64,000 nt of DNA, taken from the NCBI GenBank assembly GCA_964187785.1, contig OZ076409.1, positions 43,960,001 to 44,024,000 of the forward strand, in the 5' to 3' direction. Numbering within the stretch: the stretch's first letter is position 1; each line of letters begins with the position of its first letter. This document shows, piece by piece, positions 40,501 to 57,798 of the stretch. A program made the translations under genes and the position numbers. The notes under the pieces are model-generated. The model saw only the letters and a program-made list of their open reading frames with translations. It ran no database searches and was not told where the DNA came from. This stretch comes from Amphiscolops sp. MND2022. Lineage: Eukaryota.

Positions 40501-43500
40501 TAGTGGAGACAATCATCTAAGTATTCACATTTCATATGATATTCTCTTATTAGCGAAATATTTTTATTCATGAATATAATGTGCTTTCGTGTTGGGGGAT
40601 ATTCCTATCAAGGTGTACCTGGGGGGGGGGGGGGGGGAGATGACATGGTCCAACATTTTTTCAACTCGAGACTGTATTGCAAAATCAAATGATTTCATTC
40701 ATTTTAAAACGCATTAAGACGACGTTAGACTATCAGCAAGGTGAAATGTTAAGCATCATCTTGTGTGTGGTTCATTAATCACTCCGGTGTCTAACCTGTT
40801 AAATTGGTGAAAGACTAGAACTGAAACAGAATATACTGTGCCGTAATTTTCATATTCATCACAGTGTTTGAACTTTCTGAGCCACATTCAAACCCAGGAA
40901 CCTTTGACTGAATAGTACAAAATAGGCTAAATATCACTGAAAGAAAGCGGTGTAAAACATAGTTTCCTTAATTTTTAGTCGGCGTTTTTGTAACAAAAAA
41001 TACCAGACTCTCACAGTAGCAAGCTTTTTTTGTCAGACCACAGACCTTCCTAGCTATTGATCCCCATTTGACCCTTTAGAAACTGTGGCTAGTTTCTAAG
41101 CTACTGTAGCTATTGTGATGGAAAAATTGTCAGTGAATGCCTCAGCTAGAAACTGGTGAAAAATAACAAAAAGCACCTGGCGAGAATCTAGTTTTGAGCT
41201 TTGGTCGCTCGATAAACGAGGTGTCACAAGGAAAAAAGCTTCCGCATTTCCGTATAGTTATCTTATAGCGAGTGTAATGAGTTGATTAGCCCTCCAACAG
41301 ATGAAACCATCCACTCAATAACTTTTCCATGTATAGGAAATCCCGTTATTGGTCACCAAAAACTCAAAAATTAAAAGATCAAAAAATCCCCTGATTTTAA
41401 GGCATTTTCACAAAATAAACCATCAAATCAGCGGTTTTCCGATACGGGCCACAAAAACCCCAAAAATTAAAAGTCCTCAAAACCATTGATTTTAAGCACT
41501 TTTTAGAAAACAAATCATCGCGAAAGCTCCCGCAAAATAGTGTTTTTACCATGAAGCAAAAATTCACTAACCTCTATGATGCGCGAAGCTACGCGCGAAG
41601 CTACGCAATGTGTAATAATAACACGTTGCTGTACAGCCAACGTTAATGTACAACCAGCGTTAATGCACAACCAGCATTAATGCACAACCAGCATTAATGC
41701 ACAACCAGCATTAATGCACAACCAGCATTAATACACAACCAGCGTTAATGCACAACCAGCATTAATGCACAACCAACGTTAATGTACAGCCAGCATTAAT
41801 ACACAACCAGCATTAATGCACAACCAGCGTTAATGCACAACCAGCGTTAATGTACAACCAGCGTTAATGTACAACCAGCGTTAATGTACAACCAACGTTA
41901 ATGTACCGGCGCATACGTTATTCTTATAAAACTAAAACTAACATTGATTCGTCTCCCATAGCTTAGTGGTTATAGCATTGACTAAAGTTAAGGCTTCGGC
42001 CGGAGTGTTTGGGGTTCACTTCTATCCAACGTCCCCCAGTCTTTGTTACAACTTACATGTTATGGGAGAATAATCACCAATGGCACAGTTCTTAAAAAGG
42101 ATAATCCCTGCTGTGGAAACTCTTAGTGGAACGGACTCCCGATGGGCTTTGAGTTTACCATAGGCATGTCAATGCATATGCTAATGAGCATGCCTATGGG
42201 TTTTGCGTAGCTTCGCGTATTTTTCAACTTTTTCATCTTAATAAATGTATGAAACTCCGTCTCTTCATAAGTTTGGTTATTCTAGTGAACAGCTAAAACT
42301 GAGGGAATATCAGGAGCTAAAAGATATGATAAAAAGTCAAGAAAAATTAGCCCAAATAACCCATTCCAAATTAAAAGAAGATTTGCAACGCGATTTTGAA
42401 AATGACATAGAAAATCAAGAGAAATTAATAGAAGAAAAAATACTAGACGCGGTAGCTATCGCGAAAGGGCACCAAACACTAGACCCACAGGAAATTCAAG
42501 ATGTTTTATTAAACACAAAGTTAATGAATGATATTTATTCCCAGTTTTCAGACCTTTCAAAAAACATAAATAAATTAGAACAAAATATGAAAAAATCTTT
42601 CGCCGAACAAAGAACTGCCTTAGTAAATGAGGTACTAAATTTAATACACAACAATAGTTTTGAAATGTTAACAGTCCGTAATTTAAAGTTTATGAGTCAG
42701 GTGGGACAAGCTGGAATGATTTTAAATGAAGATGAAATAGATAATATTCTTAATAGCCTAGATCAAAATAAAATTACTATAACTAACAACATAATTCAAC
42801 TGCTTTATGACAAAGGTTTGTTCGATTCCTTTCCCAATAAAGATCAAGCTTTTGCAAATTATCTAACTTTTAGTGAATCCTATTTAAAGGAAAAGTATGG
42901 AAAAACAATACCTACTTCAGATGGTGAATATTATCTGTCGGATTTAGAATATTCTACCATACAATCAATTCTGGAGTCATTGAAAAAAGACAATTTTAAA
43001 GACCTTGTTGATATGAAACACAGAATGAAATTAACACCAACGGAAATAAATTTCATTTTATATGATTAATAAATGGAACAAAAACTCTATCCCTCCCTGA
43101 CCCCCGCGACAGCTAACGCAACGGCCTCTCCCCCCGCACCATATGATGTAGAATCAATGATAAATAAACACTTACAAAGCGAATTACAAAAAGTAAATAC
43201 TTTCAATAATTCTATTCAAAACATTAGTCTAATGATGAAATATTATGAAATGGAAGAAAATAAATACAAACAGAAATACAACAAATACAAGCTAATAAAT
43301 AACTTAATTAACTCCCTCGATGGTATTATAGTGATTGGAACAACTTCAGCATCAATCTCACTAAGTATTACTGGTGTGGGTATTATAGTTGTTCCAATCG
43401 CTACAGGAGTTGGTTGTACAACTGGTATCCTTGTTAAGATTTGTTCTAGTTATTTGAAGAAAAAGGAGCAAAATTATAAACTTAAGTACACTATTATTCA

Positions 43501-57798: not shown

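Follow-up and report, generated by a model that had tools for sequence, protein, structure and literature searches.

The window analyzed here, a 64,000-nucleotide stretch of the genome of the acoel Amphiscolops sp. MND2022 (assembly GCA_964187785.1, contig OZ076409.1, positions 43,960,001 to 44,024,000 of the forward strand), contains a capsid-encoding Polinton/Maverick (polintovirus) insertion of about 16.2 kb in which all 12 genes begin with the sequence ATAAATG. The insertion lies at 41331..57534 of the window and was recognized by its terminal inverted repeats, by Pfam matches for the major capsid protein (MCP), an rve integrase (INT) and an A32 ATPase, and by homologs of its polymerase, pPolB. 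The left terminal repeat (41331..41687, plus strand) is without the terminal bases present at the right end and continues into a 17-bp tandem array to about 41900; the right repeat (57163..57534, minus strand) has the terminus AGTAGT on the minus strand. The repeats pair over a 273-nt arm that is 100% complementary and a 94-nt arm that is 90% complementary, as expected of Polintons with long terminal repeats. Copies of the 17-bp unit occur at the inner edges of both repeats, about 17 on the left (41600-41905) and 3 on the right (57163-57225), and form a candidate origin or enhancer. An exact 67-bp direct repeat flanks the insertion (41263-41329 and 57535-57601), with the left end clipped. The target-site duplication of Polintons is short, about 6 bp, and the flanking repeat, which seems a peculiarity of the copy in the window, is far longer than this.

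The element is a Polinton by gene content, with an rve integrase, terminal repeats and a morphogenesis module of MCP, penton, ATPase and cysteine protease. On the plus strand, the motif opens ORF1 (motif 42241..42247; ORF 42245-43069, 274 aa), the first gene inside the left repeat; ORF2 (43069..43075; 43073-43801, 242 aa), 3 nt past the ORF1 stop; the frame with its ATG at 43914 (43910..43916); packaging ATPase A (50887..50893; 50891-51967; Pox_A32, E=4.3e-8); and a second ATPase-like gene, ATPase B (52544..52550; 52548-53618, 356 aa), which matches related Polinton ATPases at 30-34%. On the minus strand, it opens the double jelly-roll MCP gene (49859..49865; 49861-48617, 414 aa; PF21738, E=1.3e-21), INT (50854..50860; 50856-49918, 312 aa; PF00665, E=1.6e-10), a 430-aa ORF with weak homologs in related Polintons (54905..54911; 54907-53615), a basic 168-aa ORF for a putative core protein (55438..55444; 55440-54934), the penton/minor capsid gene (56470..56476; 56472-55459, 337 aa), 3 nt past the upstream stop, an 80-aa ORF that overlaps the protease stop as ATGA (56716..56722; 56718-56476), and the adenain-type cysteine protease gene, PRO (57150..57156; 57152-56715, 145 aa), the first gene inside the right repeat. 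Only 34 bp (50857..50890) separate the ATGs of the divergent INT and ATPase A genes, and this region holds both of their start motifs. The predicted model of the penton matches the mavirus penton (Foldseek E=3.6e-9), and the protease has invariant His, Asp, Gln and Cys residues and a profile match to pS273R of African swine fever virus (ASFV) and to adenain. Five ORFs, among them the unassigned ORF1 and ORF2, have no assignment, or a weak one, besides MCP, INT, the two ATPases, pPolB, penton and protease. The two packaging-ATPase-like genes adjoin (50891-53618); ATPase A hits Pox_A32 and resembles clusters labelled Nucleocytoviricota or Preplasmiviricota, and ATPase B resembles the ATPase of related Polintons. 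Between them lies a non-coding stretch (52170-52540) of short repeats, some direct and some inverted, in which ATAAATG is found at 52422 on the plus strand and at 52375 on the minus strand.

The copy in the window is damaged. A perfect 745-bp tandem duplication (45968..47458, plus strand; 45968-46712 equals 46714-47458), either real or an assembly artefact, splits pPolB; ATPase A seems to be frameshifted, as an overlapping ORF at 51843-52169 suggests; and the Walker A motif of ATPase B is degenerate. Sister pPolB proteins are single ORFs of about 1,280 aa, and among homologs of 1,000-1,350 aa some carry PF03175. The pPolB of the element has no PF03175 hit, as in the definition of Beta adintovirus, yet homologs 52% identical to it do. 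One related pPolB (P0427, 52% identity, from a cluster of 136 members) contains an intein with a homing-endonuclease-associated domain (PF14890, PF05204) at the polymerase active-site motif. At least 120 homologs of the capsid, 80-97% identical to it, lie on contigs that reach about 1 Mb and group into clusters of 80-132 members; the ORFs of the sister families are full-length, and their capsids are down to about 80% identity. In a tree without named reference capsids, the element's capsid was placed in a divergent sub-lineage of PF21738-type capsids. The initial annotation held that the element encodes no RNA polymerase, and Pfam agrees with this: no match to an RNA polymerase, capping enzyme or transcription factor was obtained among the 13 element ORFs, 8 of which had no match above the cut-off.

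The same annotation placed ATAA directly before all 12 ATGs, which was borne out at every position, as was its count of 11 starts that read AATAAATG, where a canonical polyadenylation hexamer overlaps the start codon. The exception is the MCP start at 49861, which reads TTATAAATG. For comparison, ATAA precedes 1.8% of the other ATG triplets within the element (10 of 541) and 1.2% of those in the 47.8 kb of flanking DNA (19 of 1550); a naive binomial probability for 12 of 12 starts is about 1e-21. When ORFs were called blindly (at least 100 aa, first ATG after a stop), the motif was found at 11 of 12 (p=1.5e-14), the single miss being the internal Met at 46760 of the split pPolB; the 80-aa ORF fell below the cut-off of this procedure. 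Plain AT-richness was considered as the cause and rejected, since shuffling the upstream 30 nt gave an expectation of 0.92 against the 12 observed, and none of 2000 shuffles reached 12. TAAAT(G/A) at the start codon, as in poxvirus late promoters, is present in 12 of 12 cases. Ten more ATAAATG sequences in the element head no core gene. Two of these open antisense ORFs, each as ATAA-ATG: one of 105 aa (48180-48497, minus strand, from 48497), antisense to the 3' end of pPolB, and one of 74 aa (from 44031, minus strand). A unit that contains ATAATAAATG on the minus strand is repeated at the convergent pPolB/MCP junction (48473-48616), and the 105-aa ORF opens with one of its copies.

When the 12 starts were aligned on the ATG, positions -4 to -1 were invariant (ATAA), -5 was A in 11 and -6 was T in 9; G was absent from -8 to -1. 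The T at -3, found in all 12, occupies a position at which 627 of 852 ORFs in 76 related loci (near-duplicates included) have a purine. A purine at -3 favours initiation by scanning, and a pyrimidine provides a poor context. The T is therefore best explained as untranscribed, if this rule holds in acoels. Further upstream there is a T-rich patch, with T at 34 of the 48 positions from -15 to -12 (p=6e-4 by within-sequence shuffles scored at their best window). TATAWA was found upstream of one start only, a test that covers TATA boxes, which in RNA polymerase II promoters lie 25-30 nt upstream, and leaves room for TATA-less promoters.

The motif is also independent of the gene upstream. Four of the 12 starts have no same-strand gene before them; ORF1 and PRO follow the terminal repeats, and INT and ATPase A are divergent. 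Several starts had initially been described as abutting or overlapping the upstream stop codon, which is true of three (gaps of 3, 3 and -4 nt), the remaining gaps being 18-580 nt. This independence undercuts both coupling to polyadenylation and reinitiation. AATAAA or ATTAAA occurs within 100 nt past 8 of 13 stops, but most of these are the start motif of the next gene, and neither hexamer was found within 130 nt of the ends of pPolB and ATPase B. Coding DNA shows no depletion of sense-strand AATAAA (32 occurrences, 29.8 expected), in a weak test that gave only z=-1.5 for the contrast group described below.

A capsid search of viral contigs and prokaryote bins identified no close relatives with DNA context. 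Related loci were obtained by pPolB searches, from the best 80 of 588 metagenome matches and from 79 loci drawn from 108 bin matches, with identities of at most 44% among the matches listed. L003, L009 and L182 duplicate L189 and L190 and were counted once; L193-L195 are spurious ATPase hits, which were excluded from group counts and are still within the 74 rows of the correlation given below. In 88 pPolB-bearing loci with at least 4 ORFs, the strict TAA-ATG start was dominant in L052 only (3 of 5). Among loci with the capsid type of the element, a looser form, TAAA within 3 nt of the ATG, was found at all 17 starts of L190, at 10/13 in L002, 10/15 in L189, 11/15 in each of L197 and L198, and 4/6 in L090; the enrichment in L190 and L002 holds (p=5e-4) even with positions -2 and -1 fixed. 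L197 and L198, whose capsids are 25% identical to that of the element, also have strict TAA-ATG at 5 of 15 starts each (p~0.01). Divergent gaps are 34-44 bp in L190, L191, L197 and L198; L189 and L002 gave overlapping calls. Long hairpins lie directly past 19 of 85 stops in seven loci of the same capsid type, where 0.5 would be expected.

A contrast group, L183-L188, has strict starts at 0 of 42 ORFs, TCAKT before 14 of 42 and hairpins past 0 of 36 stops. AATAAA stands on both strands at two clean convergent junctions of these loci, and divergent gaps are 328, 327 and 130 bp, with 51 and 77 bp in L188. TCAGT is the arthropod initiator. From their TATA, TCAGT and AATAAA signals, the members of this group are probably transcribed by host RNA polymerase II (Pol II) and probably insect-derived. 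The relatives of the element thus appear to divide into two transcription styles.

Some further features of the relatives were observed. The INT frame opens inside the end of the upstream ORF, in the -1 frame and at an A-rich run, in L197 (9137-9200), L198 (8792-8855) and L002 (about 8008-8047); the upstream ORF of L197 is a DUF5679 plus PLA2-like protein, the first INT ATG comes 60 codons later in L197 and L198, and in L191 the relation is +1. The overlap in L197, L198 and L002 may be a programmed frameshift that makes a fusion protein. Polinton-bearing contigs of probable eukaryotic origin sit in prokaryote bins (L191, L196, L197, L198, L108, L111 and others). The late transcription factor VLTF3 was present in one of four bins that hold relatives (that of L196, 3 genes); these bins are mixed, and the occurrence was given no weight.

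Viral contigs were scanned with a bipartite pattern derived from L197; the pattern contains the motif, so the seeded starts were excluded from the counts. In 13 giant-virus-like, motif-rich loci, which carry a capping enzyme, a nucleocytoplasmic large DNA virus (NCLDV) capsid, PCNA or P9, 46 of 124 non-seed starts are TAA-ATG. One of these loci is classed as Pimascovirales PM_01 (PMC8575486). Giant-virus loci also have 3' hairpins, past 15 of 51 and 12 of 75 stops. By these counts, the TAA-ATG start is of a general large-DNA-virus type and not specific to poxviruses. The initial description of the motif as poxvirus-like is too narrow, as the giant-virus-like loci examined often use TAA-ATG.

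The element was compared with published systems as these are described in the available parts of the papers cited here and below. In vaccinia virus, the TAAAT(G/A) of late promoters is preceded, at about 5-7 bp, by a core that contains T (PMC5294985), and intermediate promoters, read by the viral polymerase, have an AT-rich core near -20, a 12-bp spacer and TAAA at -1 to +3 (PMC12917281). Slippage at the initiator yields 5' poly(A) leaders in vaccinia and yeast linear plasmids alike (PMC6211774); in ASFV, the late initiator is TATA and leaders are short (PMC7163114). The element resembles vaccinia promoters in the fusion of TAAATG to the start codon, in the upstream T-rich patch and in its dense gene packing. 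It is unlike them in that the motif extends to ATAAATG and stands at every gene, replication genes included, and in that the element has by Pfam no RNA polymerase, capping enzyme or transcription factor. The pooled profile of the relatives (57 motif-bearing starts) is A-rich at -25 to -21 and mixed at -16 to -9, and resembles the core, 12-bp spacer and TAAA of vaccinia intermediate promoters.

We consider it somewhat probable, at a rough estimate of just under 60%, that the start signal works like the late promoter of a large virus, that is, as a virophage-like promoter read by a helper virus. Of the initial proposal that a single dedicated signal governs the element, the element-wide signal and its promoter/initiator form are supported; its other two forms, a coupled poly(A)/start signal and a reinitiation signal, fit poorly with the four starts that lack an upstream gene and with stops abutted at three only. 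We suggest that (A)ATAAATG may be the initiator of a post-replicative promoter, of late or intermediate type, for a Nucleocytoviricota RNA polymerase, and that the T patch may be its second part. From the motif and its fusion to the ATG, which are directly observed, we infer that transcription would begin inside the AAA, so that the T would fall outside the message and the mRNA would be almost leaderless; slippage on the A run would probably add a 5' poly(A) leader, as in vaccinia. Each gene, including the members of the divergent pair, would be its own transcription unit. The polymerase would be supplied by a co-infecting large DNA virus, and all genes would be expressed as one late class upon the presence of this helper. 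On this reading, the element would be an animal's endogenous virophage, similar to Mavirus, with its own integrase for integration and its own pPolB for copying. As in virophages, one large-virus-type promoter motif stands before all genes; the match is to a motif class and not to a named helper. The strict TAAATG with a T patch and without 3' hairpins appears closest to the poxvirus pattern, although other orders use TAA-ATG too. Poxvirus post-replicative transcripts are without defined ends. A pox-like helper thus stays in play for an element without hairpins, but is not singled out.

Promoter or hairpin signals common to satellites and helpers have been described for Mavirus/EMALE type 4 and CroV, for Sputnik and Mimivirus, and for Gezel-14T and PgV (PMC8547959, PMC6723459, 10.1101/2022.07.28.501842, 10.1101/2025.10.09.676808); the signal common to Sputnik and Mimivirus is a 3' hairpin (PMC6723459). 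Like Mavirus, the element is a small integrating capsid element with pPolB and an rve integrase and with one large-virus-type motif at all genes. The protist virophages differ in their protist hosts and in their motifs, TCTA and AAAATTGA, whereas the element has a Polinton-type capsid (PF21738); helper dependence has been demonstrated for them, and we infer it for the element. The Polinton-like viruses AHEV_PLV1 and CBEV_PLV1 are, like the element, associated with animals, and belong to the mavpol2 capsid clade; they are proposed parasites of poxviruses, on the basis of co-sequencing from entomopoxvirus occlusion bodies (Barth et al. 2024, PMC11296320). The tie of PF21738 to the mavpol2 clade is our own suggestion. 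The yeast cytoplasmic linear plasmids pGKL1/2 are Polinton-related pPolB replicons with a TAAAN initiator and 5' poly(A) leaders, but unlike the element they have their own RNA polymerase and capping enzyme and lack a capsid and an integrase (PMC6211774). Adintoviruses and animal Polintons (Starrett et al. 2021, PMC8502044) share with the element PolB, an rve integrase, a packaging ATPase, adenain, hexon, penton and terminal repeats; the element differs from them in having two ATPase-like genes and a capsid that falls in a divergent sub-lineage. The words promoter, motif, upstream and transcription are absent from the main text of Barth et al. 2024 (PMC11296320), as is the word promoter from the available text of Starrett et al. 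2021 (PMC8502044), and nothing on Polinton promoters or acoels appears in the available parts of PMC11161782, 10.1101/2025.04.19.649669 and 10.64898/2026.10.13.758929. No report of the motif in a Polinton was found in the literature covered, a coverage that stops short of subscription journals, figure logos and most supplements.

Several observations weigh against a helper-read promoter. No helper virus was found, and hundreds of sister capsid proteins lie on long contigs; such abundance implies repeated integration into heritable DNA, which needs explanation under a helper-dependent cycle. Within the element, the T patch ends 8 nt before TAAAT, as against about 5-7 bp in vaccinia late promoters; hairpins of the Mimivirus type were found after none of 13 stops (folding z-scores -2.5 to +0.6); and the 3' region of MCP contains three AATAAA sequences. 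Among the relatives, the loose motif is not clade-wide (5/15 in L191, 2/7 in L036, 0/3 in L196 and 0/2 in L192). With positions -2 and -1 fixed, only L190, L002 and the element of the window remain significant; L189, L090, L197 and L198 lose significance, and an A-rich start context therefore explains part of the motif. The division into two styles is blurred by L188, which belongs to the contrast group despite its short divergent gaps (51 and 77 bp). Across 74 loci, the relation between the hairpin and motif fractions is weak and not significant (rho 0.20, p=0.09); hairpins become more frequent as GC falls (rho -0.39). Finally, the giant-virus-like loci were found with a pattern that contains the motif and were then picked by hand; in all 106 loci among the matches listed, TAA-ATG stands at 115 of 720 non-seed starts.

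The motif could instead be read by host Pol II as an element-specific core promoter, with the initiator at the ATG or a few bases upstream of it, giving near-leaderless nuclear mRNAs with no helper involved. We regard this as unlikely, though worth serious attention: the family has undergone strong amplification (its capsids form clusters of 80-132 members), and the Pol II-like TATA, TCAGT and AATAAA signals of L183-L188 indicate that the group can use host transcription. The hexamers past 8 of 13 stops would also fit, though they are mostly the next gene's start motif. Host transcription is hard to reconcile with TATAWA at a single start and T at -3 in all 12, and the 34 bp between INT and ATPase A are too short for two canonical TATA-to-start modules plus leaders. 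As for TCAKT, the element has 3 matches, of which at least two read TCATT, a T-rich word; one corresponds, in reverse complement, to the start of the divergent partner. The undepleted sense-strand AATAAA points the same way, as far as so weak a test goes. Less probable still is that the signal is a relic: a virophage ancestor would have passed on a promoter of helper type, which is no longer under selection and has travelled with the copies as they spread by other means. The split pPolB, the probable frameshift in ATPase A, the degenerate Walker A of ATPase B and the lack of a known helper would agree with decay of this kind, but the motif is perfect at 12 of 12 starts, in one case inside the last codons of the protease gene, and sister families have kept full-length ORFs while diverging to about 80% capsid identity.

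Two other explanations place the motif in RNA processing or translation. AATAAA might be the poly(A) signal of the upstream gene, or TAA-ATG a stop-start reinitiation site on polycistronic mRNAs, and the canonical hexamer at 11 of 12 starts, the same-strand gene upstream of 8 and the stop codons abutted or overlapped at three could be taken in that sense. This is very doubtful, as the four starts without an upstream same-strand gene equally carry AATAAATG, the MCP start is without the hexamer even though a gene lies 56 nt upstream of it, no AATAAA or ATTAAA occurs within 130 nt of the pPolB and ATPase B ends, and the T patch goes unexplained. The T patch at -15 to -12 could serve as the pyrimidine tract for spliced-leader trans-splicing, which would then provide the 5' end; we give this scarcely any credence and rejected it, as no AG dinucleotide occurs within 6 nt upstream of any of the 12 ATGs and there is no G at -8 to -1. 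A late-type promoter read by a large virus is thus the explanation that we prefer.

Other repeats and genes were noted in the window. The element contains 21 copies (41520-57341) of an interrupted palindrome of 14 bp, GCGNNAGCTNNCGC, in both terminal repeats and eight genes, with some copies in 12-bp tandem arrays; 14 of 19 coding copies are in one frame, 5 in a second and none in the third. The palindrome is absent from the 47.8 kb of flank and was seen once among all other loci fetched. A dimeric protein may bind it, or it may be a selfish repeat that stays in frame. Outside the element, a decayed LTR retrotransposon-like remnant lies at 13130-17480 (minus strand), in which fragments of gag, protease, reverse transcriptase and integrase type were recognized by eye. 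Host exons were located at 2754-3041 (plus), 27039-34105 (minus) and 63596-63976 (minus), from genes that are glutamate-receptor-like and DPY19-like, as judged by eye, and from CLIC; their introns are filled with dispersed host repeat families. The CLIC exon shares 84% identity with a protein of Convolutriloba macropyga, which marks the host as an acoel or a near relative of one; the true start of the CLIC ORF lies elsewhere than at its ATG.

Animal Polintons could be nuclear viruses that live autonomously, plain transposons or satellites of larger viruses; the question is open, and the evidence found in print consists of their co-purification with preparations of entomopoxviruses or baculoviruses (PMC11296320, PMC8502044). 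That every gene of the element shares a large-virus late signal suggests borrowing of the transcription machinery of a co-infecting large virus, and not use of the worm's own. From a large-virus-type start at every gene one would predict that the mRNAs are leaderless or have A leaders, that expression is linked to infection and that acoels harbour a helper still to be discovered. We propose tentatively, at somewhat less than even odds, the wider view that a high-copy acoel Polinton family is an endogenous virophage wired to the late transcription machinery of an as yet undiscovered virus of acoels, pox-like or another large DNA virus, and that among animal Polintons of the same capsid type some lineages are transcribed by a helper (with a TAAA initiator, short divergent promoters and often 3' hairpins) and others by the host (with TATA, TCAGT and AATAAA), a division that could be recognized from intergenic DNA alone. 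The principle is already known from protist virophages; the case of a high-copy animal Polinton and the two-style split are apparently new to print. Start context, divergent gap and 3' signal could sort thousands of animal Polintons by their likely transcription system, and such sorting could give leads to large viruses of invertebrates that are still hidden. The start signal also makes it conceivable that inherited antiviral elements in the style of Mavirus exist in an animal.

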